A stretch of 64,000 nucleotides of DNA from an uncultured Gammaproteobacteria bacterium (GTDB lineage: Bacteria; Patescibacteriota; Patescibacteriia; UBA1558; GWA2-36-10): positions 8,498 through 72,497 of the forward strand of contig CAZWYP010000004.1 in assembly GCA_964638415.1 (NCBI GenBank). The letters run 5' to 3'. A program made the translations under genes and the position numbers. Positions 815 through 19,555 of this stretch are shown one piece after another. Position 1 is the stretch's first letter; each line of letters opens with the position of its first letter. A model generated the notes under the pieces. The model ran no database searches and was not told the origin of the DNA. It saw only the letters and a program-made list of their open reading frames with translations.

Positions 815-1493
815 CTGTTTCCACTCTTAATTTTCTTATATCATCCAATGGTTCGCGTTGGAATAAATCGGGATTATAACTATTGTAGTACAATTCAATC
901 AAAGCCTGCGTATTTAGACGCTGCGAACTCAACCCTAGACTGGTTAGACCGGCGGCAATAAAACTGCAACGTTTATCCAGCTCCGCGCTCATTTCTGCAA
1001 AACGTTTGCGAGATAATTTAACTACTTTGGCCGTGGAAAAAACCGCACTCATCCGGCTGGTAAATTTTTTCTTACTATCACCAGCTTCGCTGTAAGGCAC
1101 TACTACAAAAAACTTCTTGCTCATAATTTTCTCCAAAGTCAGTAATTCACTGATAAAAGAACGATACTCACTAATTTGCATGCGCAATAATTCATTGGTG
1201 TGTTCTCTTTCCACTTTCTTCAACTTATTAAGATAATCATCAATATTCAAAGGACGAGATTGTACTACAATCTGCAAAGGGTAATTCAAAGTATTCAAAA
1301 ACCCGACATAAGAGTTAATCATCGCGGCCTGCTCATCTTCAGATTTTAAATCAAAATTAATGGAGGAAACCAATAACACTCCCCTCACTGAAGCGTCATT
1401 TAAAATAACCAAATCCTCCTTAATGGCGGCAATATCCAAATACTTTTGTGTCGAGGTCTGCAATTTATTCCCAGCTATTTTTTTATTTTTCAT
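807..1493 (-). CDS. Hypothetical T4SS-associated protein (pattern resembles the extreme N-terminal domain of Gram-positive VirB4-like ATPases)
   Basis: 228-aa ORF between the PrgI-like gene and virB4-like gene. Segment DIAAIKEDLVILNDASVRGVLLVSSINFDLKSEDEQAAMINSYVGFLNTLNYPLQIVVQS resembles the start of VirB4 family proteins. The 8-nt overlap with the next gene suggests translational coupling. The homology call is from memory only. Confidence 0.35.
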   Translation of the reverse strand: MKNKKIAGNKLQTSTQKYLDIAAIKEDLVILNDASVRGVLLVSSINFDLKSEDEQAAMINSYVGFLNTLNYPLQIVVQSRPLNIDDYLNKLKKVEREHTNELLRMQISEYRSFISELLTLEKIMSKKFFVVVPYSEAGDSKKKFTSRMSAVFSTAKVVKLSRKRFAEMSAELDKRCSFIAAGLTSLGLSSQRLNTQALIELYYNSYNPDLFQREPLDDIRKLRVETDV

Positions 1494-1956
1494 AATTCAC
1501 GCTGTTAAAAGGTGATTTATTGGCCCGATTGGCTTCCAATTCTCCCTTATATATTCCTCCCGTATCAACAATTAAAGACAGTTCCGACAACTTACTCGTT
1601 GGCAAAAAAGCCTTGGGTTTAACCAATTGATTATTATCCTCACTTTCCACCTGACGCTCCTCAAATTTAATTTCCTGTTTTAACCAAATTCTCAATTTGG
1701 GCTTTTTAGAAGTCTGAATGACATTAAGCAAGAAAACATGAAACGGCGCTCCGTTTATTTTGATAAAAGCGAATAAAATAGTCAGAAAAGCAAAAATAAT
1801 AAGCTGAACGATAAACAAAGCAAAGTCCGACAATTTGTAAGCAGCAAAAACAAATAAACCGCCGATGATCATAATAATAAACTGCCGGACGGTCACTGGT
1901 CCAATAATCTTATCTTCTGCATCAATAAATTGGGGAACAATAAAACGATCCTGCAT
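1483..1956 (-). CDS. PrgI/VirB3-like small two-TM membrane protein of type IV secretion systems
   Basis: 157 aa. N-terminal VPQFIDAEDKIIGPVTVRQFIIMIIGG followed by two hydrophobic helices, typical of the PrgI family (PF12666-like). Sits immediately upstream of and overlapping the virB4-like genes. Confidence 0.5.
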   Translation of the reverse strand: MQDRFIVPQFIDAEDKIIGPVTVRQFIIMIIGGLFVFAAYKLSDFALFIVQLIIFAFLTILFAFIKINGAPFHVFLLNVIQTSKKPKLRIWLKQEIKFEERQVESEDNNQLVKPKAFLPTSKLSELSLIVDTGGIYKGELEANRANKSPFNSVNYEK

Positions 1957-1957
1957 A

Positions 1958-3322
1958 TTAGAATCTCAATAATTTATTTAAATCGGAAATAGAAGCGAAT
2001 TCTTCAATTGTTAAAGTATTCTCTTTATTATTCAGCTTCTCCCTAATAATATTCTCCACGTCTTTGCCCTGGCTTAAGCTTTCTTCGCCCAAAGACAGAT
2101 ACAGCTGGTAAACCGGGCTACGGCGCCAACCTTCAATACCTTGGGCTTTCTTAGTGATTGAGTCTTTTTCCAAAACATTAATCTTCTGCAATAATTTATC
2201 TATTTGCTGACGGGAAGAACTGCCTAAACGACGGAACTTATCTAAATCTAAAGACTGCAATTCTTCAATCGGACCGGTTAAAGTTGCCTTGGGAGCGGCG
2301 ACGCTAGAAGAGTAAATAGGTTGGGAAAAAACTTCCTTTTCCTTAGTGACTTTCACATCACTTACTGGCTTTTTATCGCCAGCGCCAACGCGGAAAACTT
2401 TAGGCAAGGCTGCTTTAATTTCATCTTCTGGCTTTTTAACTGGAGCTGGAGAAACTTTAACCTCTGCTTTTGGCTTAGGTTTTAAAGTTTCCAACTTCTG
2501 AACAGTTTTCAAGATAGGCTTTAAATCAGCATCATTCTCATCAGCGTCCGCCAATTCATTACCAGCAGCTTTTGCAAGTTCATCTGTTGATAAAGCAGAT
2601 AATAATTTTTCTACCTCTGCTTGAGTTTTTTCCTGTGGCTTACTTGGCGGTAATTCCTTGTTTAAATCCGCTTCCAATTCTGCCACTTCATTAGGCAGAG
2701 CCTTCGCTTTACTGACCACTGGATGATTTGCCTGCTTAACAGCTAACTCTGCCATTTTAACCACTAATCCGCCGCCGACTTCAATCTTAGCTTTAATGCT
2801 TTTGACAATCCCTACGATATTATTAACCTGCTCTTCGGTTAAAATCTTGCCATTAGACTCTATCCTTTCCGACAACAGCTCTCTAATAATAATGGCATTG
2901 CGCCGATTACGGAAAAAATCAAATAAGATATCCGTAAACTTATTCTTAGTGTCTGCAGAAAATTTTAGTTTTTCCTGATCAATCAATTTATCTACTATCT
3001 TTTCAATGCTATATTTGCGGGAATTATCCTGGGGAATATCCTTAACTAAACTAGCCACCTCCTCTTCATCATCAGGGTGAAAACCGAACTTAGCCTTATC
3101 TTGGCTATTGCCCAATTTGGGCAAATCCAAAAAATGCTCATTGTCTGGAGCTAAAGCCGGCGCCATGATTTTTAAAGATAAATCAGTGTGTTGAGTCAAG
3201 GCTGTACTTTTTGTTGGTCCGCTTTTATAACGATGCAGCTGGCCGCTTTGCTCTTTAACCAAAATATTATCTGTCCAATTATCAGATAATGGGTGGGAAT
3301 TGGCTTGATTATTATTTGGCAT
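1958..3322 (-). CDS. Hypothetical protein (low-complexity, K/E/A-rich, no TM)
   Basis: 454-aa ORF abutting the PrgI-like gene (2-nt gap). No recognizable motif. Confidence 0.4.
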   Translation of the reverse strand: MPNNNQANSHPLSDNWTDNILVKEQSGQLHRYKSGPTKSTALTQHTDLSLKIMAPALAPDNEHFLDLPKLGNSQDKAKFGFHPDDEEEVASLVKDIPQDNSRKYSIEKIVDKLIDQEKLKFSADTKNKFTDILFDFFRNRRNAIIIRELLSERIESNGKILTEEQVNNIVGIVKSIKAKIEVGGGLVVKMAELAVKQANHPVVSKAKALPNEVAELEADLNKELPPSKPQEKTQAEVEKLLSALSTDELAKAAGNELADADENDADLKPILKTVQKLETLKPKPKAEVKVSPAPVKKPEDEIKAALPKVFRVGAGDKKPVSDVKVTKEKEVFSQPIYSSSVAAPKATLTGPIEELQSLDLDKFRRLGSSSRQQIDKLLQKINVLEKDSITKKAQGIEGWRRSPVYQLYLSLGEESLSQGKDVENIIREKLNNKENTLTIEEFASISDLNKLLRF

Positions 3323-5458: not shown

Positions 5459-6610
5459 ATGAAATACTTATTTATCTTGGGACAGTCCCCGTCTCTAGCC
5501 AAACAGGAGATAATCTCCCTGCTGCCAGAAGCTAAAATAGAATTATCTGGAGATAATTTTGTGGTACTAGATACCAAGGAATCTGCGGAATCATTAATGT
5601 CAGTTTTAGGCGGCACAATTAAAATTGCTTCTTATATAAATATTGTAAAAGATCTTAGCAAGATAACAGTAGAAGATTGGAGCAAGTGGCTTGATAAAAA
5701 CCAAGGGCAGAAAATAAATTTCGGCTTCAGCCTTTATGGCGGCAGCAAAAAAAACCAGCAGCAGCTGAATAAACTAGCTCTGCAAGTAAAAGGAGCTTTA
5801 AAAAGCGAAGGATATAAAGTCCGCTTAGTAGTCAGCAAAGAGTTAATTTTGTCTTCAGTAATTGTCAGTAAAAATAAATTACTGAAAAATGAGCTGTTGC
5901 TTATTCACACTGCCCAAGGCTGGGTCATGGGTTTAACCCAAGCAGTGCAGGACTTTGTTAATTTCGGTTTTAGAGACATCGGCCGTCCAGAACGGGATGA
6001 TCAAAGCGGCATGCTGCCACCTAAGGTAGCCAGAATGATGATTAACCTAGGCGGAGCTGATCGCCAAAAAACTATACTAGACCCTTTTTGCGGTTCCGGT
6101 ACAGTTTTGCAGGAAGCAGCTCTCTTGGGCTTTCCTCAAATCTATGGCAGCGACAAAAGCCATGAAGCTGTTCATGATGCTCAAGCTAATCTAGAATGGC
6201 TTAAACAAAAATTTAACATCAATAGTGAGATAACTATTAAAAAAATAAATGTAGTTAATCTAAATCAACATTTTAATGCTAATTCTGTGGACTTAATTGT
6301 CACCGAACCGTTTATGGGACCAGCCCGGCAGATCCAAAAACAATTTAAACTGGAGTATTTCCTACAATTAAAAAATGAGCTTAGTGACCTTTACCTTACG
6401 GCTTGGCAACAGTTTAATAAAATACTAAAACCAGGTGGCTTAGTGGTTTTTATCTTTCCGGTGTTTAACTTAAAAACCGGGGACATCCACACTTTAGACG
6501 AAAAAAATATTACCAAGCTTGGTTTCTCCTTAAAAAATAAAATAGTCTACTCCCGTCCTCAACAAAAAGTAAGAAGAGAAATAACTTACTGGCAAAAAAA
6601 CCGCGACTAG
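5459..6610 (+). CDS. SAM-dependent RNA (guanine-N2) methyltransferase of the UPF0020 / THUMP-associated family (RlmL/Trm11-like)
   Basis: Motif I LDPFCGSGTVLQEAALLG preceded by MLPPKVARMMINLGGA. Motif IV variant VTEPFMG. ATG at 5459; the track start at 5423 is TTG. Confidence 0.65.
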   Translation: MKYLFILGQSPSLAKQEIISLLPEAKIELSGDNFVVLDTKESAESLMSVLGGTIKIASYINIVKDLSKITVEDWSKWLDKNQGQKINFGFSLYGGSKKNQQQLNKLALQVKGALKSEGYKVRLVVSKELILSSVIVSKNKLLKNELLLIHTAQGWVMGLTQAVQDFVNFGFRDIGRPERDDQSGMLPPKVARMMINLGGADRQKTILDPFCGSGTVLQEAALLGFPQIYGSDKSHEAVHDAQANLEWLKQKFNINSEITIKKINVVNLNQHFNANSVDLIVTEPFMGPARQIQKQFKLEYFLQLKNELSDLYLTAWQQFNKILKPGGLVVFIFPVFNLKTGDIHTLDEKNITKLGFSLKNKIVYSRPQQKVRREITYWQKNRD

Positions 6611-6618
6611 TCGCGGTT

Positions 6619-7869
6619 TTAATTTACTGGCTGAACCCAGGCTAATTGATTATTGATATTGCTAATCTCCCGCCATTTTAAGGTATTATCCGTTAAATCC
6701 AGATAAACAACCTGGCCTTCTCCCCCTTGAATATTAGATAAGTAAAACCCTAATAAGGCTGCTTCCGCCTGCGGCAAACGCAATTTATCATTAAGAATAA
6801 GCTCAAAAAACAAACGGCGCCTAATTAATTTGTCAGTAATTTCTACTAAACTTAATTTTTCTCCAAAGCGCACACTAATAAAACGTCTCATAATTCCTTG
6901 AAATCTCTTATCTTCCTGCAGCATTAAGTCTAAGGCTTTCTTTTCAATTAACAACTTAAGGCAGGCCAACGTTTTATCCTGATCTTGAATACCGACTGCT
7001 TGCCATAAAACATCGCGCAATTTATGCAAACTGCCTCCGGCTTCAGATAAAATCAAATCCTCCCCTACTATTTTCTTCTGCCAAACAACCAAACGCTGAT
7101 TAATCTGCTCTAGTATTTCTTCTGTCTTTGGTTGTTCCGACTTTTCTTTGCCTACAACGGTTTTTTCTGGCAACTCTCTGACTTTAACAATAACATCGGA
7201 ATTATCTATTTCTATTGGAGAATCATCATCGTAAGAAATAAAAAAGTTGCGGATACTGCCCTTTTCCTCTTCTGTTAAATCTAAAATATTACGGTCACTG
7301 GATAAATACTTAGCGCGCTGCAATGAGCTATGATAGCCAGCTCCCATCTGTTTAAAATAATCGTTAAGCCAGTTATCTACCGTCGGACTTAATAAATTAC
7401 CTTCCCGGTCAATTATTTTTTTGGAGCTTAAACGCAGATCCTTAAAATCCGGATACTGCTTCAATAATTGTTTGACTGTTCCGGAAATATAATTTGGTAA
7501 AGTGGGGTTTTGCATAGTCCGCTTATGCAGATGCTTCAAATGCGGAACCTTGCCTCCTAAACGTAAAATTAAGCGGTCAACATCTTTTAAATAATCCTGC
7601 AGCGGCCAAAGGATTTTATAGGCAATTTCCAGACATATTTCCCGTAAGTCATAATATTGCGCCCGTTCCATGTTCTCCAATTCGTTAGGCAGATCCAGGC
7701 TAGAAATTTTTTGTAAAAACAACTTTTCTTCCAAGTCTAAAATAAAATCCAACTGATTTCTATTCAACGAAAAACGATCAGCCAGCTGCTGATTGTAATC
7801 CGAAAGCTCGGTACTAAATACCACCTCTTTCACTTCTGGAGGTAAATTTTGTAAACTCTCAATTGGCAT
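6619..7869 (-). CDS. Hypothetical protein (416 aa, soluble) immediately downstream of the VirB6-like gene
   Basis: ORF only. 11-nt gap to the upstream gene. No recognizable motif. Confidence 0.4.
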   Translation of the reverse strand: MPIESLQNLPPEVKEVVFSTELSDYNQQLADRFSLNRNQLDFILDLEEKLFLQKISSLDLPNELENMERAQYYDLREICLEIAYKILWPLQDYLKDVDRLILRLGGKVPHLKHLHKRTMQNPTLPNYISGTVKQLLKQYPDFKDLRLSSKKIIDREGNLLSPTVDNWLNDYFKQMGAGYHSSLQRAKYLSSDRNILDLTEEEKGSIRNFFISYDDDSPIEIDNSDVIVKVRELPEKTVVGKEKSEQPKTEEILEQINQRLVVWQKKIVGEDLILSEAGGSLHKLRDVLWQAVGIQDQDKTLACLKLLIEKKALDLMLQEDKRFQGIMRRFISVRFGEKLSLVEITDKLIRRRLFFELILNDKLRLPQAEAALLGFYLSNIQGGEGQVVYLDLTDNTLKWREISNINNQLAWVQPVN

Positions 7870-7880
7870 TTATTTTTGTT

Positions 7881-10646
7881 TTAACTGGACTGTCCTCTAC
7901 TCCTCTGACTATTCCTGTTTTGATTGGCAGTTGCATTTCTAAAAGCTTCATCAGTACCAGCGACTATTCGGCCGCCCTGCGCTTGCCCGCCAATTCCGGA
8001 AACCTTCAAGCTGTTCTGCATTGTTTCTGACAAATCACTAAAGACTGCTTCCAAATCGCTTTTATCAATCTTTAAAGCTTGGGTGCTGCTTAAAGTATTA
8101 ACGAATTGAGCGAATTCTCTCTTGGCATCATTATTGGCAAATAATCTGACCTGATTACCATTAGCATCGCTTCCATTAATTTTACCAAAGGCTTCTCCGG
8201 CAAATTGCAAATTATTCTTAGCCAGCTGATTACGACGATTCTTCTGCTCTAATTTAATTTTTTCTTCATCAATTGAAGCATCACCGCCATTAGCTTGAAT
8301 GCTTTTAACCCTGGCTTCTTCTTCAATTTTAACCATATTTATCTGATTCTTAAAGCTGGCCGCCACATCTTCTGCTTTAACATACTGACGAGTAGCAACA
8401 TTAGTAGCTAGGGCTTCAATATTATTACCAGCTTTCACCTGGGCTTCAATTACCATCTTAGTGCGCTCTTCATTACCACCTCTTTCAGCAACAGCATTAA
8501 CTTTAGACAAAGGCAAGTAAGGAGCAATGGCCTGAATAACCCGCTGATCTTCCGGGGAATCTTTCATTTCCAATAAATCATCATCTTTAATATTGCGAGC
8601 CAGCTGCGGAGCAAACTGTTTTAGTGTCGCTTCCCGGCGATTAGCAATAATTTCTTTCTCTTCAACGCTCTTACCATTGTTCATCTCGTGATCCGGATTT
8701 AAATCCTCTCTCTTATTTACTTCTTCCAAAACACTGCTCATGGCTTTAGAATTAACTGAGGATAGTTTGTAAGCTTGATGATCTTGATTTACTTCATAAC
8801 TACCATCATTATTCCTAACCAACAAAGATCGGTCTGCTTTTTCTTTGCCGGTATTTTCTTCAGCTGTACCAAATAAGTTCTTATTAGCATGGGCAATTAG
8901 CGCCTGATTCCACCTATCTTGAGTAGTGCGAGTTTTCGCAGACAAAAACTTCTGCTGTTCACCAGCTTTGAAATTTTTAAACTGCTCAACAACCAAGCGG
9001 CCGCCTTCATTTAAATTGCCCTCGTGATCAAATAATGTTTCCGGATCAATATTATTAAATGCCGCCAAGCCTTGTTCTTTAGCCGCTGCTTCCGCTGAAT
9101 TCTTGCCATCACTGCTAATAGAGTGGGCCATGGCATTAGTGCTACGCACTTTTTTGATCATTTCCCCATCACCTACGCGCTGTGCCTCTTTAATAACATC
9201 ATTAACCATGTCTAGGTTATCTTGATGTCCTTGAATAGTTGTATTTTTATCTTTATCAAAAACATTATTATTATCCACCCTGGTCTTGTATTCATTATAA
9301 CGATAACCCGGTCTGCCTTCATAAAATTTCTGACGATCCTCTGGATTGCTAATATTCTTCTCTGCCCACTTTGTGGTAAATTTACCGGCTTCGTGCCTTT
9401 TAGCTCTTTCAGTTTCTGCCGCCTTAAACGCTATGCCTGCAGAAACCAAAGGCTTAATGCCTGTTTTTTGCAAACTAGCACCCAAGCCAGCTCCTGCTTT
9501 GCCGGCTAAAGCCACTGCTCCGCCATAGCCGCTGGAACCGGCCACCATGGTTTTACCTACCCGGCGGTACCCAGCGCTGACCTTTGACTTCATGCCAGAG
9601 GCTAATTTGGAGCCAACCGCGCCGGCCGCTGCGCCAAAAGTCTGAGTAACTTTCAAAGAACCCACCAGCATGGCAATGCCGACAATATATTTAAGAATAT
9701 TTTCCCAACCACCAGAACCGGTAATACCTATTTGGCCAATAGCATCTGCTTCTTCTTTTGTCTGGTCGCCAATTACCAGGTTTCCTTGAACAAAATCCTC
9801 ATTAACCTTACCAGATCCGACAATCATAAAAGTAAGCCACAGGAAGAAAGCCAGCATTGGCCCGACTAGTAATTCCTTGGTCAGCATATCTACCCAGCGC
9901 TGGAAATAACTCTCTCCTCTAGGCAAGGTATTAGCCAAGAAAGCAATCGGTGAAATAACAATAATAATCCAGAGCATTACTATTCTAGCTACCAAAATTA
10001 CAATAAAAGCCATTAGGACAATACTGGCTATTACCACCATAATGCCGCCTAATAAATAACCTAAAACAATCTGGCCAACTACGTCTCCGCCGCTTTCATT
10101 AGGACCGCTGCCGGCTATTTTAACTAATTCATCTAAGCCTAGTGCCGCCGTAACATTGCCATAAACCACATCTTTCCAAGCACTAACCATGGTTAACATT
10201 ATGACCTGGAACAAATCAATAACCACTCCGACTAAGGTGCGGCTAAAATTAACCAGAATAGCCATGATAATCAACCGCCTCAGCATCTGCCGATAACCAT
10301 AATTCTGGATTTTCAGAATAGTGCCGAATGCCATTACCAACAAGACTACGATAAACAGCATATTCACTAAATCACGAGCTGCGATCCAGCCGGCCTGCAC
10401 TCCCGCCTGATTAGTAAAATTATTATACTGGGCAACAATCGGTAAAAGCAGCATTTCTACTTTTAACAGTAAGATGAAAGGCCAGAAAAACAAATAAAAC
10501 AAAGTGCGACCGATTGCCTGGCCAATCCAAGAGCTAATTGTTCCCCCATCATCAGCGGCTTGAATAATATTGGGGACAAAGAAAGCAACTAAGGCAATGG
10601 CAATAAAGATTAACCAGAACTTATTTTGAATTTTTATAGTTCTCAT
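7881..10646 (-). CDS. VirB6/TrbL/TcpH-like polytopic membrane protein with a long hydrophilic C-terminal extension
   Basis: 921 aa. N-terminal signal-like segment, at least 6 hydrophobic helices in the first ~300 aa, then a ~600-aa charged/coiled tail ending in a Gly/Gln/Ser/Arg-rich tip. This architecture is typical of T4SS VirB6-family channel proteins. Sits 4 bp downstream of the giant secreted protein gene. Confidence 0.5.
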   Translation of the reverse strand: MRTIKIQNKFWLIFIAIALVAFFVPNIIQAADDGGTISSWIGQAIGRTLFYLFFWPFILLLKVEMLLLPIVAQYNNFTNQAGVQAGWIAARDLVNMLFIVVLLVMAFGTILKIQNYGYRQMLRRLIIMAILVNFSRTLVGVVIDLFQVIMLTMVSAWKDVVYGNVTAALGLDELVKIAGSGPNESGGDVVGQIVLGYLLGGIMVVIASIVLMAFIVILVARIVMLWIIIVISPIAFLANTLPRGESYFQRWVDMLTKELLVGPMLAFFLWLTFMIVGSGKVNEDFVQGNLVIGDQTKEEADAIGQIGITGSGGWENILKYIVGIAMLVGSLKVTQTFGAAAGAVGSKLASGMKSKVSAGYRRVGKTMVAGSSGYGGAVALAGKAGAGLGASLQKTGIKPLVSAGIAFKAAETERAKRHEAGKFTTKWAEKNISNPEDRQKFYEGRPGYRYNEYKTRVDNNNVFDKDKNTTIQGHQDNLDMVNDVIKEAQRVGDGEMIKKVRSTNAMAHSISSDGKNSAEAAAKEQGLAAFNNIDPETLFDHEGNLNEGGRLVVEQFKNFKAGEQQKFLSAKTRTTQDRWNQALIAHANKNLFGTAEENTGKEKADRSLLVRNNDGSYEVNQDHQAYKLSSVNSKAMSSVLEEVNKREDLNPDHEMNNGKSVEEKEIIANRREATLKQFAPQLARNIKDDDLLEMKDSPEDQRVIQAIAPYLPLSKVNAVAERGGNEERTKMVIEAQVKAGNNIEALATNVATRQYVKAEDVAASFKNQINMVKIEEEARVKSIQANGGDASIDEEKIKLEQKNRRNQLAKNNLQFAGEAFGKINGSDANGNQVRLFANNDAKREFAQFVNTLSSTQALKIDKSDLEAVFSDLSETMQNSLKVSGIGGQAQGGRIVAGTDEAFRNATANQNRNSQRSRGQSS

Positions 10647-10650
10647 ATTT

Positions 10651-13600
10651 TTATTCTTCCGGCTCGTAAATAACTATCCAGCCAGCATATGGCCAATTAG
10701 CTGACTGATTCCAATTATCTGTCACTGTTAATACCGGCTTATAGCACTGGGCATTGAAAATATTAGGCGCGGTAGGATCTGAAGCGTGTATGGCTGAACA
10801 AATATTACTTTCATTATCCTCATCCCAAACATAGAAATGGAAAAATGATTTATACCCTTCATGGCAGGCGCCGGTAGTGCCGGCAAAACCCATCAGCCTA
10901 GTACCGCTTAAACCTGGAGCATTCTGATTGGGGTCGCAGTCAAATAAATTATTCTTATACTTGCTATTCGGCAAACCGCCGCTAATGTCTCCATCTCCCC
11001 AATTAACCCGCAAATCGGTGATCGGCATATGATCGGGATGAGCGTGGTAATAGAATTTAATGGCCGCAAATAAATTACCTTCATCGCCGACAATTTCAGA
11101 GTCGTCATTCTTATTATTTACCGTAATACCCTGTGCTGGAGCAATTAAACCATTATTGTCGCAATAACGGCTGCCACAGACCTTGAATACTCTAGGTAAA
11201 TAATCTGGGCCAGCAAAAGAATTAGTGTAGCCAGAAGAAAGATCGGTAATTGTATTATTAGTATACTGTGACCCATTCCAATTTAAATTATATAATCGGG
11301 CAAACAATTGTCTTAATTGGGCATCTGCCTGGCCAGGATTAGAATTATCAGCAAAGAAAATAGAGGATGCTCGAGGTTCAAAATATCTTTGATTTAAAGG
11401 TGCTTCTACCACAATTATTTCTTCATTGGCCAATCCTTGATCACCGCCAAAGAATGGACCAACTGTAGTTGATTCAACCCGACTAAAACCAATATTAGTA
11501 TCATTAGGATAACAACAACCTTCACGAAGATAATATGCTCGCCATGTTCCCATGTGGTCATCATCTGCTTGTGGCGTAGTCGCATTATTAGCTGCTCGCC
11601 ACCAAATATCTGTACGTAACCAAGACTTGCTATGATCGCCTTCAGCATCTATAACATTAATTGTGCTACATTGTTTATAACAACCATCATCACCACCTGG
11701 ACAGCTAAAAGTCCCATTTACTCCAGAAGTGTATATCCCCCCGGGAGCAACGCAGTTAAGGTCTCTGGTGGGATTACCCATACAACCGGAGACATTCCTA
11801 TAAATAAAATCGCCATCGCTAATACCGTATGCTTCTAAGCGCATTTGCGGAGTAATTAAATCATAATACTGCTGGCTACAACCAGCGCCGCCAACTACCA
11901 CCGGATTTCTATGCAATAAATAATCCCAATAACTTACATAATACTCTGTGGAAGTGTTATGGTAAGATTCACAATAATTAGTATTAAAACCATATCCATC
12001 ATTATTAATAATGGCACCAGCATGTAAAACACAGTGTGCAAACTTGCAGTCATTATCCTCACCACAACCTGAATTATCTTCAGGATCCATGCTAGCTATA
12101 TTGTAATTTGTAGCAACCTGATTGAATCTACCGCCTAAATTAGTCAAGCAGGAAGCAACTGATGCGCCACAATTAGTAATCTGGCAAATCTGTCCAGGAT
12201 TATATTCTCTACTAATATAATAATTATAAGTCCGGGGGTTACAAACTACAGTACAGTCATCATAACGACGGCCACCACAAATATCACCGCTACGGCAATA
12301 CCATGATGCCAAGTGCATATTTCTTGCCCCGGAAGAACAGCGAGAACCGGTGCCTAAAACAATATCTTGAGCACAATCAGCATTACCACACAATCCCTCT
12401 CTACAATCACCGCCAGTTAAATTTATACCCCTTGGACTATCCGCAAAACCTTCCCTGGCTTGACCATGTAAGACCGTTGGTATGCTTCCTCCATTACTAT
12501 TACCGTCTGGAGATACTCCTGAATCAAAGAAGTAAACCTTCAATTGTTGACTACTGTGAGAAAATAAACTTTGAATATCCTCAAGATAATTTGCAGTTAA
12601 ATTGGCGTTAGAGTAGTTAAAATCAGCAGCCGAATATCTCTGATTACTCGGTGGATTACCATAGATTATTGGATTACCCACATCCGCAGGAGCGGCCTCA
12701 AAAACATACTCACCTGTTAATTTCCAATGTCGCCCAGTGCCATCTGATGGACTATCGTCTACCAAGTTACTATAATATCCTGCGCCATGAGCAAAAATAT
12801 TTGAACCAGCAGGAATTTGGACTAAAACATTACAAAAACCATCTCGCCAAGTAGCACAATATAATCTATCCTCAGTTAATAAATATGGTTCGGTTAATTT
12901 ACAAATATTAACATCCTGCCCAGCTGGATTATAGAAACCAGCTTCCACAAAATGATTGAAGCGGCTTTGCGAACCGATTATCTGCTCGCTAGGATACCAC
13001 TGATTGCAATAATAGCTCTGTTTAAAATCACTCTGAATTAAAGTGGAAGTATCCGGTTGTAGGCAAATTCCGCTCCAGTTAATAAAATCTTCTACTTTAG
13101 TGATTGATTCACAGCGGCCATTTACACCGCAACTGTCATTATCTATAGCATTATCATTATCTCCAATATCTTCAGGGTTACAGGAGTCTCCTTCTTTTTT
13201 ATCCAACTGCAGTTGCTCATCTACCACGCTACAAACACCAGCCGCATAATTGCCGGCGTTAAAATCTTTATATCCGTAATAACGCACTAAGCTGCCTAAG
13301 CCATAAGTCACTTTCTTATAGCGAGGTTCACAACCATTTTCTCCATCCTGACAAACATTCGCCTGATTATACTTGCTCTTTAAGACAAAAACATCTCCTT
13401 CTCCACCTTTAATACTCTTGGGGAAAGGCGCTTGCTGAGCAGCATAACCGCGAGTAGCTAAGCCATATTCGCTCTGATTAATCGTGGGACTGCCTGTCGG
13501 ATTAAGCCAACAAACCGAATCCTTGCAAATACCGGCATAGCCAGATACGCTGCAAGTTAAATTATCCCGTCCATCGCAAATACCTTCCGGCTGAATATCT

Positions 13601-16600
13601 GAAGCATCATAAACTAAGCGTGGATCATTATATTCAGTAGTAGTCGCAAAGTCATAAACCTGCAAGCTACGCAGAGGGAATAAATCTGGAACTGAATATC
13701 CAATATATTCCTTGTCTGACCATTGAATATGTTCATTGATACCACTCACTCTATCTTGGTATTCCGTCACTGTTAGAGGACTATCTGGAGTATAAGTCGC
13801 CCACTTGCGGCATTGGGTAATATTACTGGTTGAAGAATATTCCACGCAGCTGTCTAAAGCGTCACAAATCATCTCATATTGAGAAGTATCTTCGTTAAAA
13901 ACTGCAGTTAATGACTTACAAGCCAGCCATTCCGCACACTGGCGATCCTTGTTAACCTTCACAATGCGGTTAGCATCAAGAATTGCTCCGCCGCCGCCAG
14001 TATCCGGATTCACCGGCTTATTGAGCGCTACATTATTATTGTAAGTTACTTCCGTATCATAAAGCTTGATTACTTCCGTGTGATCAGCATTCCAATTATT
14101 GGCATCATAAACCAGAATACAGCCGGTTTGCTGATCAACCTGCCCATTGCAGCTTCCGGCTTCTATTTTTTCATTATCATAATAATAATATGACTGGCAG
14201 TCCGGCACATCAGGATCACTGTTGCTATTGTCAAAATCACAATTCAAAGGATCAGCTGGATCTACAAAAGTAGTGCAGAGATTCTTATTTTCCGGACACA
14301 TGGCCGACCAGCCAAACGGCATTTCCGGCTCCCGACCAGAAGCGCATAATTCCGGCGTGCCGCTGGTTAAGCTATCTGTTTCAAACCAGCCATCAATTAA
14401 ATCTCCGTCAATATTAACATCTTCCTGGTAACTGCAAGTCTTATTGCCCGGATCGCGGAAATAATAAATCCCCTTGCTAGAACTAAATGCTTCGCAATAC
14501 AAATCTTCAGAACGGCATAAAGTATTTTCATACTGATCAGGATTATTAAGCTTATATACTGTATCAAAACCAGTAACTACATTCTCTACCCGATCAATTT
14601 CTGGCAAGCCTAAAGCCATACATCCCTTATAGGCAGAAGCGCAATATTTATCTACATCTGGCACTAAATAAGTGACGCTATCTGCTGCTACTGCCAATTG
14701 AGAATAATCTCCCGTATTAAAAGTCTGAGCAAAAGGATTGGTAGAATTATGAGTTGCAATTACCGCCTGACAGCCGATCGCTTCCTGACGGCATAAGCTG
14801 GTAAATGATTTTAGATTATAGTTTTCGCCATTAGTATCCCGGTAAGCTTGGCAACCTAAGTAAGCACCGGCAAACGGATTATCGCAAGAAGCCGGAGTCT
14901 GCCAAGAATTACGGACATAAGACAAACTGTCTACTAATTCTTTAAGGATAAAATTATCTAAATAAATTGACCCCGTGCCATTGGTACCAAATCGCAAAGT
15001 AACATTGCCGGTTAAATTAGTTAGCGGATTAGATGTTATTTCATAACGATTCCACTGGCCGCCGGAGATGGTATTAATATTGCCAACTAAAGCGGAGTGG
15101 GTGCCGTCAGTAAAGGAAACCACTATGGAATCAATAGTGCCTTCATTCTTCATCCAGAAAGACAATTGGTAACTCTTATTATTCTGGATATTAGCAACCG
15201 GGCGGCTAATGCCGGTAAATCCGCTGGGCGATGAAACCCGCATAGAGTGGCCGCCATTGGCTAATGACTCATTGGACAAATCAATAGCAGTACCACCTTC
15301 GGCATACCAAGGATCATAACTGCCGTTTTCAAAATTATCCGTAAATAAACGCCGCTGGTTATTGGCTGCTGCTCCGGTATAAGCCCGGCAACCGGCAAAT
15401 TGAGCTTGGCAAGTCTGACTTAAATCGGGAATTGCCTGATACTCCTGCCCAGTAAAGGTGCGGCGGTAAGGATGACAATTGTTATCGGCAAAAATTACCC
15501 TATCACTCAAACGGTAATGATCTTCACCGTTAATGTCAAAATATTGGCGACAATTAATATCAAATTCCGGATCATCAAAAGGATCTTCAGTTTCTGGACC
15601 GCAAGCAGCCGTAGCATGAGCGTTTTCTCCCAATGGATCATAAGGCTCATCCACGCAAGTATTACCGCCGGGGTCTACATTAGTACAAGGCGCATCATTA
15701 AGATTGCTTTCTAGGAAATTAACTGTCTGCAACTGGTAACCGGCCACATCCGATCCCTGCCAAGTATAATAAGTGGTGCCGTAGCTTGCCGGCACGCATT
15801 GGCGCAAATAAGTGTAGTATTCCTTGCCTTCCCCGCCTTGCTCTACCTCGTCCAAATTAGTAAACTCCTCGCAACCAATTTCCTGACTAGGGCAGCTCAA
15901 AGCAGTGGTAGGAATAAAATTATAATAATCCGGAAGATTATCTCCCTCAAAGACATCAAAAATATTGGGCTGTTCAGCAAAAGTAGCATAACCAACGCAT
16001 TCTGCCGGACAAATGTCATTGGCGGTAATAATACCAGGCACTAGTGGATCGCCATTAAGAGGCACATAACCACGACAACCTACCTCCTCCTCCACACACA
16101 TAAAGCGATCATTGTCCATTAGAATCCTGCCGCCATCACCGTAAGCGCTGAAGTTTGACGGACCAATATCGTCAACTCGGCGCTCATAACTGAAAGTGCT
16201 AACTTCTTCCACTTTAATATTATCCAAAGTAAATATATTAGCGCCAGAAATCTTGACTTCAATCCGCTGACCTTCAGCATCTTCGCCAAAAGTGCCATGA
16301 ACGACCTGCCGGCTGCCGGCTGGATCTAATTCTCTAAGATAAGCTATACCCCTACTCAAAGGATCACGCTGGTTAATACTGGCATCAATTGTTCCAGTGC
16401 CAGTAGCATCAAAACTCAAGATAAATGAGCGGTTTTTAATATCATAACCAGTATCAATAATTGCCGTAATATCTTCATCAACCTGCACAGTATATTCCAT
16501 ACCGCCACTCCGGCGAGCCGAGCTTACTACTTCCAAATTACCCGTAGTAGTAAAACCCATTATCTGATCGGAATCTCCGTCGTCAGGATCACCTTTAAAC

Positions 16601-18654
16601 ATAGTAATATCGCCATTGGGCAAAAGATTAATTCCTCGATCAGCGGCCATGACAATAAATTCGCTGCAACCATCTTTGTCTGGTGGACAATTATTAGCTT
16701 GGCTGTTTAAAAATAAATCATTCTCGTTAAAAGGATGGGTGGCGGGATCTAAAGTCATATCTGCTTCCAGTAGCCAATTTCCTTCACTGTCTCTCTCCTG
16801 AGCATAGCGCTGACAACCCACCTGATCTGCATCGCAATAATCCAGAGTCCCTTCAATATAAGAATTATTGCCTAAACGATCGTTAGCGAAAGTCAAACAG
16901 CCGGAATAGATATCACCATCTTCGCATAAATCACCGTTGAAGCGCCAAATATTTTCCGAACGAGTGCAGTAGCCGTATTGTCCATCCAAACAATTACCAT
17001 TTCCGTCTTCCCGCAGGCAAGTCTGTACATCAGCGCAATACTGCTGACGGGCATTTGATTCAGAAGATTCCAATACCGGCCCGTAAACTAAGGCATTACA
17101 GCGTGCGGCCGGAGCTTTTAACACCCAATTAGGATCTACTAAGTGATAGTAAGGATTATGGTTATCATAGGCAGGGTCGATTCCAAAAGGACAGCCGACG
17201 TCCTCAAAACATTCAATAACTTTCTCAAGAGAAACAGAGGTTCCTACTGGCGCCCGCAAAGCTGCCATTTCCCAACCAACCGGAACTACGCCAGCTTTCC
17301 TCAATTTAACCATATTGTGATAGCAAAATCCTTCTAAATAACAGGTATCGCTATTATTACGCGGATCACCAGGACCAATAAAAGGCAAGTCTCCATTTAA
17401 AGATCCGTCTAGAATCGCTTGAGCCACTGTTTTGCGCTGAGGTAATAGCTGTAAAAATTCTACGCTGATCGTACAATTATCCGGACTGCGAAAATCTTCC
17501 TGGTTAGGACAAATGGCGAAGTCCTCCATTAAGGTATAATTTTCTACTTGCCTAATGTCGATAGTCTTGAGATCGCGGAAAATATCCACTCCTCTGGGAG
17601 CGCGTAAATCAGCGCCGCCGCGTAATAAGGTTAATAAATCATCACGGAAACTCTGGTCATCGTTACCCAAAAGCTGAGTTAAAGACCACATGCCGCGGCG
17701 AATATAATGTTCCATTAACTTACCAGACAGAGTTCTAGTAAACATACTAAATCCCTGACGCAATACTCCGCCGATATTAACCACGGTCTTGCCGTCTTTT
17801 TCACTAATTAGTTTCTGTACATCTGCTTGAGCTGCTTGCTCTAGAGGGGTGATGGCTATTTTATGAACCACCTGACAATGAGTGCGCACTTCTTCAGTAA
17901 TAACCGTTTTCTGATCCTTAAATCCCTGACATTCTGCTTGCGTAATCTTAGCTACCTCTTCCGCTCTTTGCTTACGAGCCTCCTGTTCCGCATACAAGCG
18001 GCTCAAGGTTCCTAAATCACTATTAGATTCGTCAAACTGATTGAAGAAATCAGCAATGCCTTCAACTCCGCTCTGGCGGGGATCAAGTTGGAATTTAATA
18101 AAATCAGTCCAACCGCCGCCAGACAATGAATCGCTAAACTGCCGCCAGTTCTGCTGAACTTCCCGCCAATTACACTTCGGGGCCGGCGGAGCAGCGCTGT
18201 CAATTAATTTTAAAGTTAAAGTAAGCTTTACATCCAGTGAGGGATCACAGAGATTGATTCCTAAATCCTTAAAATGTTTAGAAGTTAATTCTCCGATAAA
18301 ATCGCCGACGGCCGCTTCACCTGCTTTATTTAATACCGTACCGATATCTTCGGTGCGAAACAAGGGTTTGCCGCCAATTGCTCCCTGAGCAATATAATTC
18401 GCCATTTCATAAGACAAGTTGCTAATAAATGTATTAACCGCGTTATTAATTAATTCCTTGGCGATAAAAGTATAAGATCGATCAACGATATCAGTGACCC
18501 TCTCCCAAACCCACTTAGCAACATTAACCGCTACCACATCAGGAGCAAAAGCTTGGGATTTTACAGGAGTAAAAACAGCCGGTGAAAGCACCAATAAAAA
18601 CATAAAAACTGACAAAATCAGTGTTTTTATTCCTTTATTTTTTATTTTTTGCAT
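10651..18654 (-). CDS. Giant (2667 aa) secreted cysteine-rich protein with a CBM4/9/22-like carbohydrate-binding module. Putative extracellular adhesin or host-interaction protein.
   Basis: Single uninterrupted ORF. N-terminal signal peptide (KTLILSVFMFLLVLSPAVFTPVKSQA). Many Cys in a recurring [VIL]GC[QRES]x[YF] context. Segment FENGSYDPWYAEGGTAIDLSNESLANGGHSMRVS...IYLDNFILKEL has the hallmarks of a CBM_4_9 beta-sandwich. Confidence 0.75.
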   Translation of the reverse strand: MQKIKNKGIKTLILSVFMFLLVLSPAVFTPVKSQAFAPDVVAVNVAKWVWERVTDIVDRSYTFIAKELINNAVNTFISNLSYEMANYIAQGAIGGKPLFRTEDIGTVLNKAGEAAVGDFIGELTSKHFKDLGINLCDPSLDVKLTLTLKLIDSAAPPAPKCNWREVQQNWRQFSDSLSGGGWTDFIKFQLDPRQSGVEGIADFFNQFDESNSDLGTLSRLYAEQEARKQRAEEVAKITQAECQGFKDQKTVITEEVRTHCQVVHKIAITPLEQAAQADVQKLISEKDGKTVVNIGGVLRQGFSMFTRTLSGKLMEHYIRRGMWSLTQLLGNDDQSFRDDLLTLLRGGADLRAPRGVDIFRDLKTIDIRQVENYTLMEDFAICPNQEDFRSPDNCTISVEFLQLLPQRKTVAQAILDGSLNGDLPFIGPGDPRNNSDTCYLEGFCYHNMVKLRKAGVVPVGWEMAALRAPVGTSVSLEKVIECFEDVGCPFGIDPAYDNHNPYYHLVDPNWVLKAPAARCNALVYGPVLESSESNARQQYCADVQTCLREDGNGNCLDGQYGYCTRSENIWRFNGDLCEDGDIYSGCLTFANDRLGNNSYIEGTLDYCDADQVGCQRYAQERDSEGNWLLEADMTLDPATHPFNENDLFLNSQANNCPPDKDGCSEFIVMAADRGINLLPNGDITMFKGDPDDGDSDQIMGFTTTGNLEVVSSARRSGGMEYTVQVDEDITAIIDTGYDIKNRSFILSFDATGTGTIDASINQRDPLSRGIAYLRELDPAGSRQVVHGTFGEDAEGQRIEVKISGANIFTLDNIKVEEVSTFSYERRVDDIGPSNFSAYGDGGRILMDNDRFMCVEEEVGCRGYVPLNGDPLVPGIITANDICPAECVGYATFAEQPNIFDVFEGDNLPDYYNFIPTTALSCPSQEIGCEEFTNLDEVEQGGEGKEYYTYLRQCVPASYGTTYYTWQGSDVAGYQLQTVNFLESNLNDAPCTNVDPGGNTCVDEPYDPLGENAHATAACGPETEDPFDDPEFDINCRQYFDINGEDHYRLSDRVIFADNNCHPYRRTFTGQEYQAIPDLSQTCQAQFAGCRAYTGAAANNQRRLFTDNFENGSYDPWYAEGGTAIDLSNESLANGGHSMRVSSPSGFTGISRPVANIQNNKSYQLSFWMKNEGTIDSIVVSFTDGTHSALVGNINTISGGQWNRYEITSNPLTNLTGNVTLRFGTNGTGSIYLDNFILKELVDSLSYVRNSWQTPASCDNPFAGAYLGCQAYRDTNGENYNLKSFTSLCRQEAIGCQAVIATHNSTNPFAQTFNTGDYSQLAVAADSVTYLVPDVDKYCASAYKGCMALGLPEIDRVENVVTGFDTVYKLNNPDQYENTLCRSEDLYCEAFSSSKGIYYFRDPGNKTCSYQEDVNIDGDLIDGWFETDSLTSGTPELCASGREPEMPFGWSAMCPENKNLCTTFVDPADPLNCDFDNSNSDPDVPDCQSYYYYDNEKIEAGSCNGQVDQQTGCILVYDANNWNADHTEVIKLYDTEVTYNNNVALNKPVNPDTGGGGAILDANRIVKVNKDRQCAEWLACKSLTAVFNEDTSQYEMICDALDSCVEYSSTSNITQCRKWATYTPDSPLTVTEYQDRVSGINEHIQWSDKEYIGYSVPDLFPLRSLQVYDFATTTEYNDPRLVYDASDIQPEGICDGRDNLTCSVSGYAGICKDSVCWLNPTGSPTINQSEYGLATRGYAAQQAPFPKSIKGGEGDVFVLKSKYNQANVCQDGENGCEPRYKKVTYGLGSLVRYYGYKDFNAGNYAAGVCSVVDEQLQLDKKEGDSCNPEDIGDNDNAIDNDSCGVNGRCESITKVEDFINWSGICLQPDTSTLIQSDFKQSYYCNQWYPSEQIIGSQSRFNHFVEAGFYNPAGQDVNICKLTEPYLLTEDRLYCATWRDGFCNVLVQIPAGSNIFAHGAGYYSNLVDDSPSDGTGRHWKLTGEYVFEAAPADVGNPIIYGNPPSNQRYSAADFNYSNANLTANYLEDIQSLFSHSSQQLKVYFFDSGVSPDGNSNGGSIPTVLHGQAREGFADSPRGINLTGGDCREGLCGNADCAQDIVLGTGSRCSSGARNMHLASWYCRSGDICGGRRYDDCTVVCNPRTYNYYISREYNPGQICQITNCGASVASCLTNLGGRFNQVATNYNIASMDPEDNSGCGEDNDCKFAHCVLHAGAIINNDGYGFNTNYCESYHNTSTEYYVSYWDYLLHRNPVVVGGAGCSQQYYDLITPQMRLEAYGISDGDFIYRNVSGCMGNPTRDLNCVAPGGIYTSGVNGTFSCPGGDDGCYKQCSTINVIDAEGDHSKSWLRTDIWWRAANNATTPQADDDHMGTWRAYYLREGCCYPNDTNIGFSRVESTTVGPFFGGDQGLANEEIIVVEAPLNQRYFEPRASSIFFADNSNPGQADAQLRQLFARLYNLNWNGSQYTNNTITDLSSGYTNSFAGPDYLPRVFKVCGSRYCDNNGLIAPAQGITVNNKNDDSEIVGDEGNLFAAIKFYYHAHPDHMPITDLRVNWGDGDISGGLPNSKYKNNLFDCDPNQNAPGLSGTRLMGFAGTTGACHEGYKSFFHFYVWDEDNESNICSAIHASDPTAPNIFNAQCYKPVLTVTDNWNQSANWPYAGWIVIYEPEE

Positions 18655-18662
18655 GGCTTTTA

Positions 18663-19457
18663 TTAACTAGCTAAACGATTACGAATGTCTATTAACTCTT
18701 GTTCACTTAAACGATTGATGGCTTCCTTATCTGCCTCTGGCTGATTAAGTAAGAATGTCCGAACTTCTTCCGGGCTTAATTCGGCAAAATCAACTTCTTC
18801 TGAACTTTGATTTTCTTCAGCCCAAGCGGAAACAATAATAATTAACTCTTCATCGGTTAGAGCATCAATTTCCGCTTGCGGCAAACCATTCTCCACCAAA
18901 AAACTTCTTAGTTGATTTAACGTGGCCTGCTGTAAAGTTAAATTGGGATCCAGCGCTACATCCTCTACGACTTCTGCCAATTTAGTATTTGGTGTAATTA
19001 AACGCAAAATATTACAATCCTCTCCCGTTGGACATAAGGGATCGTTGCCGGAATTCGCTTCCTGGTAATCGCTGAAACCATCACTATCAGTATCCGGCAA
19101 AAACATGCTGGTATGGAATTGGTAAACTTCCTGATAATCATTAAGTCCATCTTGATCAGTATCTTTTGACTTCAAATCAGCAATAATTTCCTCCTGGCTT
19201 TGGCCGGAATTGGCAAATTGAGCGGCAATTTCCGGCGGCAACTCATTATCCAAAGGCGCTTGTAATACTTGATACTTAAAATACCAGCCACTTAAAAAAA
19301 TCACACCGGCGCCAAGCAATAAAAATAGCCAAGCGGTTTTCCTTTTCCAAATCAAAGAGCCTTGGCTTGAAGAATAATCACCGGTTAAATAACCGGCAGT
19401 CAAATTCGATTTTTCCGCAAATGAATTTCTTTTATTTTGTGACAAATCTTTGGCCAT
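18663..19457 (-). CDS. Single-pass membrane protein with thrombospondin-type-3 / dockerin-like Ca-binding repeats
   Basis: TM helice WLFLLLGAGVIFLSGWYF. Repeats DTDQDGLNDYQE and DTDSDGFSDYQE. 8 bp upstream of the giant gene. Confidence 0.5.
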   Translation of the reverse strand: MAKDLSQNKRNSFAEKSNLTAGYLTGDYSSSQGSLIWKRKTAWLFLLLGAGVIFLSGWYFKYQVLQAPLDNELPPEIAAQFANSGQSQEEIIADLKSKDTDQDGLNDYQEVYQFHTSMFLPDTDSDGFSDYQEANSGNDPLCPTGEDCNILRLITPNTKLAEVVEDVALDPNLTLQQATLNQLRSFLVENGLPQAEIDALTDEELIIIVSAWAEENQSSEEVDFAELSPEEVRTFLLNQPEADKEAINRLSEQELIDIRNRLAS

Positions 19458-19555
19458 TAAGCCTAAATTAACTAGGCTAATTATAACATAAAATCAAAAC
19501 ATTTCAAAGATTTATTCTTTAACAATGCCGCTGTGAGTAAAAATTTATTAGCGGA

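Follow-up and report, generated by a model that had tools for sequence, protein, structure and literature searches.

A giant cysteine-rich protein encoded next to a VirB6-like gene in a type IV secretion locus of Patescibacteria

Patescibacteria (candidate phyla radiation, CPR) encode chromosomal type IV secretion systems (T4SSs) that are related to the Gram-positive MPF-FATA conjugation systems, with VirB4, TrsD, PrgI/VirB3, and VirB6 (PMC12102498). These loci are often found near ksgA and dnaA and include VirB2-like pilins in some classes, while a relaxase and a coupling protein are mostly absent or distant (PMC12102498). Growth of the cultivated Saccharibacterium Southlakia epibionticum, the one species tested, on its host requires the T4SS (PMC10633639); the function of the Patescibacteria T4SS has been called completely unknown (PMC11665869). 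The 2025 survey of these systems noted KsgA near virB4, detected no adhesin, and found many neighbours unannotated (PMC12102498). Here we describe such a locus in a stretch of 64,000 nucleotides (GenBank assembly GCA_964638415.1, contig CAZWYP010000004.1, positions 8,498 to 72,497; ~40% GC), referred to below as the window. It carries a block of four genes that encode a TSP3-repeat membrane protein, a giant Cys-rich protein of 2,667 amino acids (aa), hereafter the giant, a VirB6/TrbL-like protein, and a conserved protein designated U416 (Table 1).

With a probability of roughly 0.55, i.e., slightly better than even, we take the block (19507..6594, minus strand) to be one transcription unit that encodes the membrane and surface module of a Patescibacteria MPF-FATA-like T4SS, with the giant as its host-contact element. 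The T4SS itself and its core genes have already been published; a giant-coupled form did not turn up in the papers found. Literature searches found no paper linking a giant Cys-rich protein with carbohydrate-binding modules (CBMs), a TSP3 anchor, U416, or U454 (a second conserved protein of the locus) to the Patescibacteria T4SS.

Table 1. Features of the T4SS locus in the window
Feature	Position	Strand	Basis
Promoter-like site, TTGAAA-16 nt-TATAAT with extended -10 TG	19480..19507	-	Consensus match, read from sequence
TSP3-repeat single-pass membrane protein, 264 aa	18663..19457	-	ORF list, Pfam
Giant Cys-rich protein, 2667 aa	10651..18654	-	ORF list
Predicted signal peptide of the giant, aa 1-36, cleavage motif AFA/PD	18547..18654	-	Read from sequence
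Conserved Cys-loop core of the giant, aa ~540-1610, motif C-x5-8-C-x2-[YFV]	13825..17037	-	Motif count, alignment
First CBM-like beta-sandwich module of the giant, aa ~669-839	16138..16650	-	AlphaFold2, PDB profile, Foldseek
CBM_4_9 module (PF02018) of the giant, aa 1104-1235	14950..15345	-	Pfam, PDB profile, Foldseek
Hypervariable region of the giant, aa ~1950-2400	11455..12807	-	Family alignment
VirB6/TrbL-like protein, 921 aa	7881..10646	-	ORF list
Polytopic VirB6/TrbL-like membrane domain, aa 1-345	9612..10646	-	Hydrophobicity, sub-threshold Pfam TrbL
Hydrophilic C-terminal extension, aa 346-921, "extended VirB6" architecture	7881..9611	-	Hydrophobicity
U416, 416 aa, last gene of the unit	6619..7869	-	ORF list
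Hairpin AAAACCGCGA-CTAG-TCGCGGTTTT followed by more T residues	6594..6620	-	Read directly from sequence
Methyltransferase	5423-6610	+	Convergent on the block
U454, 454-aa conserved protein directly upstream of PrgI/VirB3	1958..3322	-	Synteny; same T4SS locus
PrgI/VirB3-like protein with two transmembrane segments	1483..1956	-	Pfam PrgI E 4.9e-10, 40.2 bits vs cut-off 27
TrsD-like protein, 228 aa, resembles VirB4 N-terminal domain	807..1493	-	NCBIfam
VirB4 ATPase, N-terminal 271 aa, cut by the window edge	1..814	-	Translation, Pfam

Gene order of the locus

A search with a profile of the VirB6 membrane domain retrieved 80 loci from species-representative genomes, with 10-kb flanks, and the window proteins were compared by BLAST with the six-frame open reading frames (ORFs) of these loci. 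A homologue of the giant is encoded upstream of VirB6, on the same strand, in 52 of the 68 loci whose upstream sequence extends to 3 kb or more; it is adjacent in 22 of them, separated by a 0.6- to 1.3-kb gap in 13, and by 1.5 to 8 kb in 17. In a reverse set of 76 giant-centred metagenome loci, scanned with a VirB6 hidden Markov model, VirB6 lies downstream of the giant in 36 of the 45 loci with enough flank (adjacent in 22). The synteny of the two genes in related genomes, by which the first-pass annotation of this DNA proposed to judge their association, thus holds in both directions. Overlaps or junctions of 4 to 8 bp between the giant and VirB6 recur across many lineages (22+22 loci in the two sets), and where loci are rearranged, the two genes are still no more than 10 kb apart. 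This recurrence of tight junctions, together with the proximity that persists despite reshuffling, favours a real link between the two genes. Three metagenome-assembled genomes (MAGs) have NCBI locus tags that place the giant two genes away from U416. The tightest coupling within the block is that of the TSP3 gene, which immediately precedes the giant in 88 of the 89 loci that could be tested, a pattern suggesting that these two proteins work together. Homologues of the block proteins all come from Patescibacteria assemblies, which are named Parcubacteria, Nomurabacteria, and Komeili-, Falkow-, Uhr-, Magasanik-, and Kerfeldbacteria.

The remaining T4SS genes follow on the same strand. A VirB4-family ATPase with PrgI/VirB3 and TrsD beside it, the gene set that characterizes MPF-FATA-type systems, is encoded in the window ~6 kb downstream of the VirB6-like gene, which thus shares its locus with both VirB4 and VirB3. 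The gene order is PrgI-TrsD-VirB4, and the TrsD and VirB4 genes overlap by 8 nt. The TrsD-like protein matches the NCBIfam TrsD model with an expect value (E) of 6.2e-9, which is under the model cut-off of 200 bits, as well as the N-terminal region of VirB4_plasma (1.1e-10), and has a precomputed match to PF26593 (TraC-like). The VirB4 fragment scores 25.7 bits against Pfam CagE_TrbE_VirB (cut-off, 21). The window proteins are matched exactly on short contigs of sequencing run SRR10064596, and one contig from the same sample, L158, carries the full VirB4, a protein of 634 aa with a P-loop_TraG match. Downstream of it, at positions 3013-6026 of L158, come genes for four more proteins: a bitopic one of 192 aa, a membrane protein of 156 aa, a second bitopic one (408 aa) with faint matches to PD40/beta-propellers, and a T4SS_pilin-like one of 241 aa that is Cys-rich in its C-terminal half. 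The next gene is recG. Neither a relaxase nor a coupling protein (VirD4/TcpA) was found among the 35 window ORFs scanned with Pfam or on L158.

The VirB6-centred loci also bear on the unusual layout of the window, where, as the first-pass annotation had it, a methyltransferase and an rpsF-ssb-rpsR-efp block part the giant and VirB6 from the VirB3/VirB4 half. The ORF list and Pfam matches bear out this separation: minus-strand rpsF, ssb, a 72-aa S18-like ORF (assigned by eye), and efp lie between the methyltransferase and U454. A same-strand PrgI-TrsD-VirB4 array follows VirB6 in 52 of the 58 loci with enough downstream sequence. In 39 of these 52, there is no rpsF-ssb-efp block between VirB6 and VirB3-TrsD-VirB4, and typically only U454, plus U416 where detected, intervenes (~2 to 4 kb in most); the same methyltransferase-rpsF-ssb-efp block is inserted in the other 13, which are the closest relatives of the window. 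Because the block is missing from those 39 loci and present only in the 13 closest relatives, its distribution identifies it as a lineage-specific insertion that splits one ancestral T4SS locus. The description of the four-gene block as the second half of a T4SS is therefore well founded. Homologues of U454 precede PrgI-TrsD-VirB4 in 53 of the 80 loci.

The first-pass annotation had described four co-directional genes with gaps of 4 to 11 bp, and the ORF list agrees exactly, with four minus-strand genes (264, 2,667, 921, and 416 aa) and intergenic gaps of 8, 4, and 11 bp. The promoter-like site upstream is located in the 98 bp that separate ksgA from the TSP3 gene; it has the top score (11/12) in a scan of positions 3000-21000 and is predicted to work as the promoter of the block. 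A consensus scan of the same region failed to list the hairpin at the other end of the block, which was found by direct reading. This hairpin is perfect and overlaps the stop codon of U416 and the end of the convergent methyltransferase gene; by its sequence it is a textbook intrinsic terminator and, because of the latter overlap, probably a bidirectional one. At the internal gene junctions, there is no hairpin comparable to it. Given the tight gaps, the promoter-like site, the predicted terminator, and the lack of an internal hairpin, a single transcript from ~19480 to ~6594 would be the most economical reading. The gene upstream of the block is ksgA/RsmA (Pfam RrnaAD, 5.7e-48), preceded by genes for an MFS transporter (Pfam) and, by eye, a 204-aa Sua5-like ORF and a leucyl-tRNA synthetase (LeuRS)-like ORF.

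Proteins encoded by the block

The giant begins with a predicted Sec signal peptide: its hydrophobic segment (aa 11-29) is followed by the cleavage motif, no other hydrophobic segment is seen, and the family consensus retains a P-A-x-A motif in this region. It contains 100 Cys (3.7% of residues), 55 of which are conserved in at least 80% of the 28 full-length sequences aligned; the 27 full-length homologues from the loci are 2,527 to 2,940 aa long and have 88 to 118 Cys. The Cys-loop motif occurs in 11 copies, 10 of them within the core (compared to 2.2+-1.5 in 2000 shuffles), and this core has the highest identity in the family alignment. The hypervariable region, in the alignment of 28 homologues, shows a column identity of 0.06 to 0.23 and a gap fraction of 0.29 to 0.78, compared to a core identity of ~0.3 to 0.56. 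The family is large: a HMMER search with residues 451-1650 gave 1,133 clusters (at 50% identity) with E<=1e-30. Family members among the matches listed are nearly all 1,500 to 3,800 aa long, and the named database relatives are all "hypothetical" or "carbohydrate binding domain-containing" proteins.

The only domains of the giant that could be assigned are of the carbohydrate-binding type. The CBM_4_9 match (aa 1104-1207) has a Pfam E of 4.1e-7 and a score of 30.9 bits, above the gathering cut-off of 25.9; the same region matches CBM22 (5.4e-8) and a hyaluronan-binding module (2.2e-6) in PDB profile searches, and CBM4, CBM16, CBM22, and CBM61 in Foldseek searches (E 6e-8 to 4e-6; target-normalised TM-score, 0.54 to 0.76). 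Beyond this module, the family profile finds in the PDB only the second CBM-like module ~430 residues upstream, which matches CBM16 and a porphyran-binding CBM (E 1e-4 to 3e-3), has a predicted local distance difference test (pLDDT) score of ~70 to 88 in the AlphaFold2 (AF2) model, and also matches CBMs by Foldseek. The confident AF2 domains comprise aa ~379-519, 669-839, and 899-1089, plus the CBM_4_9 module. Foldseek matches of the giant in the PDB are all CBM-type jelly rolls, including Cry protoxin domains, binary-toxin receptor-binding domains, and CBM4/16/22/61; in the viral library, the matches are to phage tail-fibre and host-specificity proteins, at the single-domain level only. Pfam searches of nine segments of the giant at E<=1 gave otherwise chance-level matches, and NCBIfam yielded nothing useful for the block proteins except for one weak hit, to a spike-fibre domain, in a stretch overlapping the CBM.

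Thus, the giant appears to be exported by Sec, stabilised by disulfides, and able to bind glycans outside the cell, with one segment that diversifies, and the signal peptide, conserved Cys, two CBM modules, and hypervariable region together argue for a surface protein that probably fits the profile of a host-recognition or adhesion protein. Of the roles listed for it by the first-pass annotation (cargo, adhesin, or surface structure), the latter two are favoured by these features and the first is not.

The 921-aa protein has a signal-like N-terminus and then at least six hydrophobic segments in its first ~345 residues by Kyte-Doolittle analysis, in keeping with the five or more transmembrane (TM) helices looked for in a VirB6/TrbL protein; the hydrophobic peak at aa ~192-245 is long enough for two helices. 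Its family comprises 218 matches and is Patescibacteria-wide. Many of these relatives carry precomputed PF04610 or PF19590 (TrbL_3) matches, some are named "type IV secretion system protein" by NCBI, and 9 of the 30 aligned relatives match Pfam TrbL at E<=1e-3 (the best one at 4.8e-8); the alignment of these 30 homologues has 21 invariant columns. The hydrophilic C-terminal extension of ~575 residues gives chance-level Pfam matches only (E<=1) and, judging from query coverage in the 218-match search, is kept among close relatives only. By these features, the protein is a divergent "extended" VirB6, an assignment carried by the family and not by this protein alone, whose own score is sub-threshold. 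An unrelated transporter, which would have undone the original suggestion of a VirB6-like channel, is not what the profiles return.

The first protein of the block has a single hydrophobic segment (aa 42-60) directly preceded by KRK. Its TSP3_bac (PF18884) match at aa 122-141 has an E of 1.3e-8 and scores 35 bits (cut-off, 25), and a second DxDxDG-type copy is seen by eye at aa 99-110, in line with its earlier designation as a TSP3-repeat membrane protein. We propose that it may be a membrane anchor or partner of the giant. The window encodes another single-pass TSP3_bac protein at 26216-27109 (minus strand; E 2.7e-5), which shows weak BLASTP similarity (E 5e-4) to the 264-aa protein in the stretch that covers the TM segment and the TSP3 repeat.

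U416 has 87 homologues, none of them named, with 38 to 72% identity over 48 aligned sequences and 20 invariant residues. It shows no hydrophobic segment and no Pfam or NCBIfam match. Its AF2 model is confident (pLDDT, 89.1), and the predicted TM-score (pTM) of 0.45 suggests that the protein may be built of several domains; no relative was found in the PDB by Foldseek (best E, 1.1) or by profile. U454 has no Pfam match. A paralogous relationship of U416 and U454 was considered and rejected (profile-profile probability, 4.7%).

Possible roles of the giant

Our preferred reading, with the block as the membrane and surface module of the T4SS, implies the following mechanism. VirB4, together with TrsD and VirB3, would energise a VirB6-based translocon in the single membrane of the cell; that the translocon is energised by VirB4 is established knowledge on T4SS cores. 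The giant would be exported by Sec, oxidised outside the cell, and braced by many disulfides. It would be held at the surface, near the channel, by the single-pass TSP3-repeat protein, possibly also by the outer loops of VirB6; the TSP3 protein would bind calcium and have an N-in orientation, as predicted from the KRK cluster in front of its TM segment. The CBM modules and the variable region would bind glycans of the host envelope and so establish host contact, which would let the VirB4-powered VirB6/VirB3 translocon exchange macromolecules with the host. U416 would be a conserved cytoplasmic accessory protein. A bolder version, which we consider unlikely, is that in Paceibacteria/ABY1-type lineages the giant forms the extracellular part of the Patescibacteria type IV machine, i.e., a disulfide-braced stalk or conduit, anchored by TSP3 and VirB6 and docking to glycans of the host envelope, through or along which the VirB4-driven translocon would import or deliver macromolecules. 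If true, this would explain how ultrasmall bacteria feed on their hosts.

Several observations weigh against assigning the giant to the T4SS. Sixteen VirB6-centred loci have no giant in the available 3 to 10 kb upstream, nine giant-centred loci have no VirB6 within 3.6 to 5 kb, and 17 loci have 1.5 to 8 kb between the two genes, a stretch that includes LeuRS in L021, L030, and L031; the two genes are therefore not co-transcribed in every lineage. The ksgA gene is directly upstream of the TSP3 gene in 56 of 64 loci, and since it is equally syntenic, conserved order by itself does not prove a shared function; what would tie the giant functionally to the T4SS is gene order only. At the protein level, the C-terminus of the giant (...WIVIYEPEE) has no TM segment or hydrophobic tail and, by eye, no LPXTG, so that no anchor motif is seen. 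For residues 30-1229, the AF2 model is poor overall (pLDDT, 61), with long helices of low confidence over the first ~340 residues (pLDDT <50). The 921-aa protein itself scores 18.6 to 19.4 bits against Pfam TrbL (PF04610; cut-off, 25.9; E 0.0017-0.0009; aa 99-275), and the 30-homologue VirB6-family profile, searched against PDB sequences, found no solved VirB6, only a chance match to a G protein-coupled receptor (E 0.11).

The gene order data are also what would be expected if the TSP3 protein and the giant were an independent surface module, either an adhesin or an envelope component of the S-layer type, whose adjacency to VirB6 reflects an inherited order LeuRS-MFS-sua5-MFS-ksgA-TSP3-giant-VirB6. 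The ksgA-TSP3 adjacency is about as conserved as that of the giant and VirB6, the entire block from LeuRS to ksgA is conserved upstream as well, in many lineages other genes part the giant from VirB6, and 16 VirB6 loci show no giant within the available flank. Furthermore, large Cys-rich extracellular proteins are on record for CPR genomes with no T4SS being mentioned (PMC4736985). Against such independence stand the overlaps and 4- to 8-bp gaps between the giant and VirB6, the persistence of the giant within 10 kb of VirB6 in rearranged loci, and the lack of a strong-stem terminator at the giant/VirB6 junction of the window, where the clear terminator comes only after U416. We regard an independent module as a serious rival, though less likely than the preferred reading.

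It is quite improbable that the giant acts enzymatically on polysaccharides, as a counterpart of VirB1 that opens the wall of the bacterium or of its host, with CBMs that target an unrecognised catalytic domain. Modules of the CBM_4_9, CBM16, and CBM22 types are usually attached to glycoside hydrolases, large VirB1-like hydrolases are encoded in Gram-positive T4SS loci (PMC12102498), and no fold could be assigned to ~2,000 residues of the giant. Nevertheless, no hydrolase, lyase, or peptidase family was found in the giant by Pfam or NCBIfam (E<=1, nine segments) or by PDB profile, and a separate LysM-M23 peptidase is encoded nearby, at 24973-26184.

We consider it highly improbable that the giant is itself an effector, passed as cargo through the VirB4/VirB6 channel. 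In favour of this view are its physical coupling to VirB6 and the fact that neither a relaxase nor a coupling protein is present in the locus, a sign that protein rather than DNA is transported (PMC10633639, PMC12102498). Against it are the classical N-terminal Sec signal peptide kept across the family, the single membrane, beyond which Sec export alone would place the protein, ~100 Cys typical of extracytoplasmic folding, and a length of 2,667 residues with conserved structural domains that looks structural. That the giant takes the place of a VirB2 pilus was considered and rejected, since a T4SS_pilin-like gene is encoded downstream of VirB4 in the same organism.

Four conserved families without a name emerge from the T4SS locus: those of the anchor-like TSP3 protein, of the giant with its CBMs, of U416, and of U454. 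With >1,100 clusters at 50% identity and a hypervariable segment, the giant is a concrete candidate for a host-recognition element, and its family could be a host-range marker for comparative genomics. These data provide a lead, from comparative genomics only, on the open question of what the essential Patescibacteria T4SS contacts and does.

Neighbouring genes and comparison with known systems

The giant-VirB6 gap of 0.6 to 0.9 kb that is found in other lineages holds a gene for a conserved ~200-aa two-TM protein with a hydrophilic N-terminus, the motif SFGLTLxWINxHVFL...FCKLGEEW, and a second TM segment (in L016, 9291-9965, and in L034, L045, L047, L079, L080, L124, L129, and others). It has no Pfam match and is absent from the window. 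In at least two other lineages, VirB4 is followed by genes for a ~207-aa bitopic protein (FAERFGSYSN) and a membrane-anchored DsbA-like thioredoxin and by radA (L021, 18603-21320). This thioredoxin, encoded two genes after VirB4, is confirmed by Pfam in L021 (Thioredoxin_4, 1.5e-21) and L022, and similar CxxC ORFs are seen by eye in L033 and L053; a thioredoxin in the locus fits the need to oxidise an extracytoplasmic protein with ~100 Cys. The 192-aa bitopic protein encoded after VirB4 on L158 is a possible candidate for a VirB8 analogue.

Elsewhere in the window, the LysM-M23 gene mentioned above (plus strand) encodes two LysM domains and a Peptidase_M23 domain and is a candidate peptidoglycan hydrolase, with a possible VirB1-like role; LysM/M23-type domain combinations near virB4 were noted in the 2025 survey (PMC12102498). 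Three tandem paralogues of 363, 363, and 382 aa, encoded at 52347-55671 (minus strand), each contain a Laminin_G_3/ConA-like lectin domain (Pfam, 5e-20 to 2.5e-22), and the copy at 52347-53438 has a type IV pilin N-methylation motif too. These genes look like a lectin-headed pilin array, possibly another host-binding system. RNase Y, YmdB, and PNPase, proteins of RNA turnover, are encoded at 38551-40858 (plus strand) and 45641-47860 (minus strand); a 2026 preprint ties PNPase and VirB4 to RNA-based parasitism in Patescibacteria (10.64898/2026.06.21.733656). The mobile-element-type genes seen in the window are limited to an IS110-family transposase (34336-35541, minus strand) and a tyrosine recombinase (Phage_integrase; 48541-49323, plus strand), neither of which adjoins the T4SS block. 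Adjacent genes for tRNA-Val(CAC) and tRNA-Ile(TAT) are located at 29494-29655 (minus strand). An isoleucine tRNA with a UAU anticodon is an uncommon route to decode AUA.

Among proteins of known type, the phage tail-fibre and host-specificity proteins likewise combine several CBM-like beta-sandwiches in one long chain (Foldseek E down to 1e-10), and the variable region of the giant is consistent with receptor recognition. However, the similarity to them is confined to single domains, with a TM-score of ~0.1 and a root-mean-square deviation of >20 A over long alignments, and there is no phage context. The Cys-rich proteins of CPR Peregrinibacteria (Anantharaman et al. 2016, PMC4736985), likened to the giant by description, are also large, carry signal peptides, and were proposed to serve in cell attachment; they differ in being encoded in a multi-gene cluster, in having ~7% Cys, and in lacking a T4SS link.

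The extended VirB6 proteins, such as the Rvh paralogues of Rickettsiales and TraG of the F plasmid (PMC12857230), have the same combination of a polytopic domain and a large hydrophilic C-terminal domain, which corresponds to aa ~346-921 here. Unlike theirs, the extension of the 921-aa protein is restricted to close relatives, and it has no detectable similarity to them.

The Gram-positive MPF-FATA T4SSs (Prg/Pcf of pCF10, Tra of pIP501) are likewise built in a single membrane from VirB4/PrgJ, VirB3/PrgI, and VirB6/PrgH, with TrsD in some subclasses, and the pCF10-type loci encode within them a large surface protein for cell contact, PrgB, to which the giant can be likened. The giant showed no sequence similarity to PrgB; the LPXTG and adhesin domains of PrgB-type adhesins were not seen, with no Pfam adhesin matches, and the giant has ~100 Cys, CBMs, and three times the size. 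By analogy, it may work like a PrgB-type adhesin though it is not of that family. In contrast to the conjugative MPF-FATA systems, the locus in the window is chromosomal, has no visible relaxase or type IV coupling protein, and is not on a mobile element.

The closest described system is the Patescibacteria T4SS, as studied in Southlakia epibionticum (SEML1_0006-0019; Wang et al. 2023, PMC10633639) and surveyed by Quinonero-Coronel et al. (2025, PMC12102498). Its core of VirB4, the adjacent TrsD, PrgI/VirB3, and VirB6 is common to both, as are the chromosomal site near ksgA, the lack of a relaxase or coupling protein in the locus as inspected, and a VirB2/T4SS_pilin-like gene downstream (here on L158). 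Unlike the described Saccharibacteria locus, the one in the window has U416 and U454 after VirB6 and is split, in this lineage, by housekeeping genes. Whereas the Saccharibacteria locus includes a pilin array and the survey reported no adhesin, the window and many of its relatives, MAGs of Parcubacteria, Nomurabacteria, and Falkow-, Komeili-, Uhr-, and Kerfeldbacteria, encode a TSP3 protein and a Cys-rich CBM protein of 2,500 to 3,000 aa in front of VirB6.

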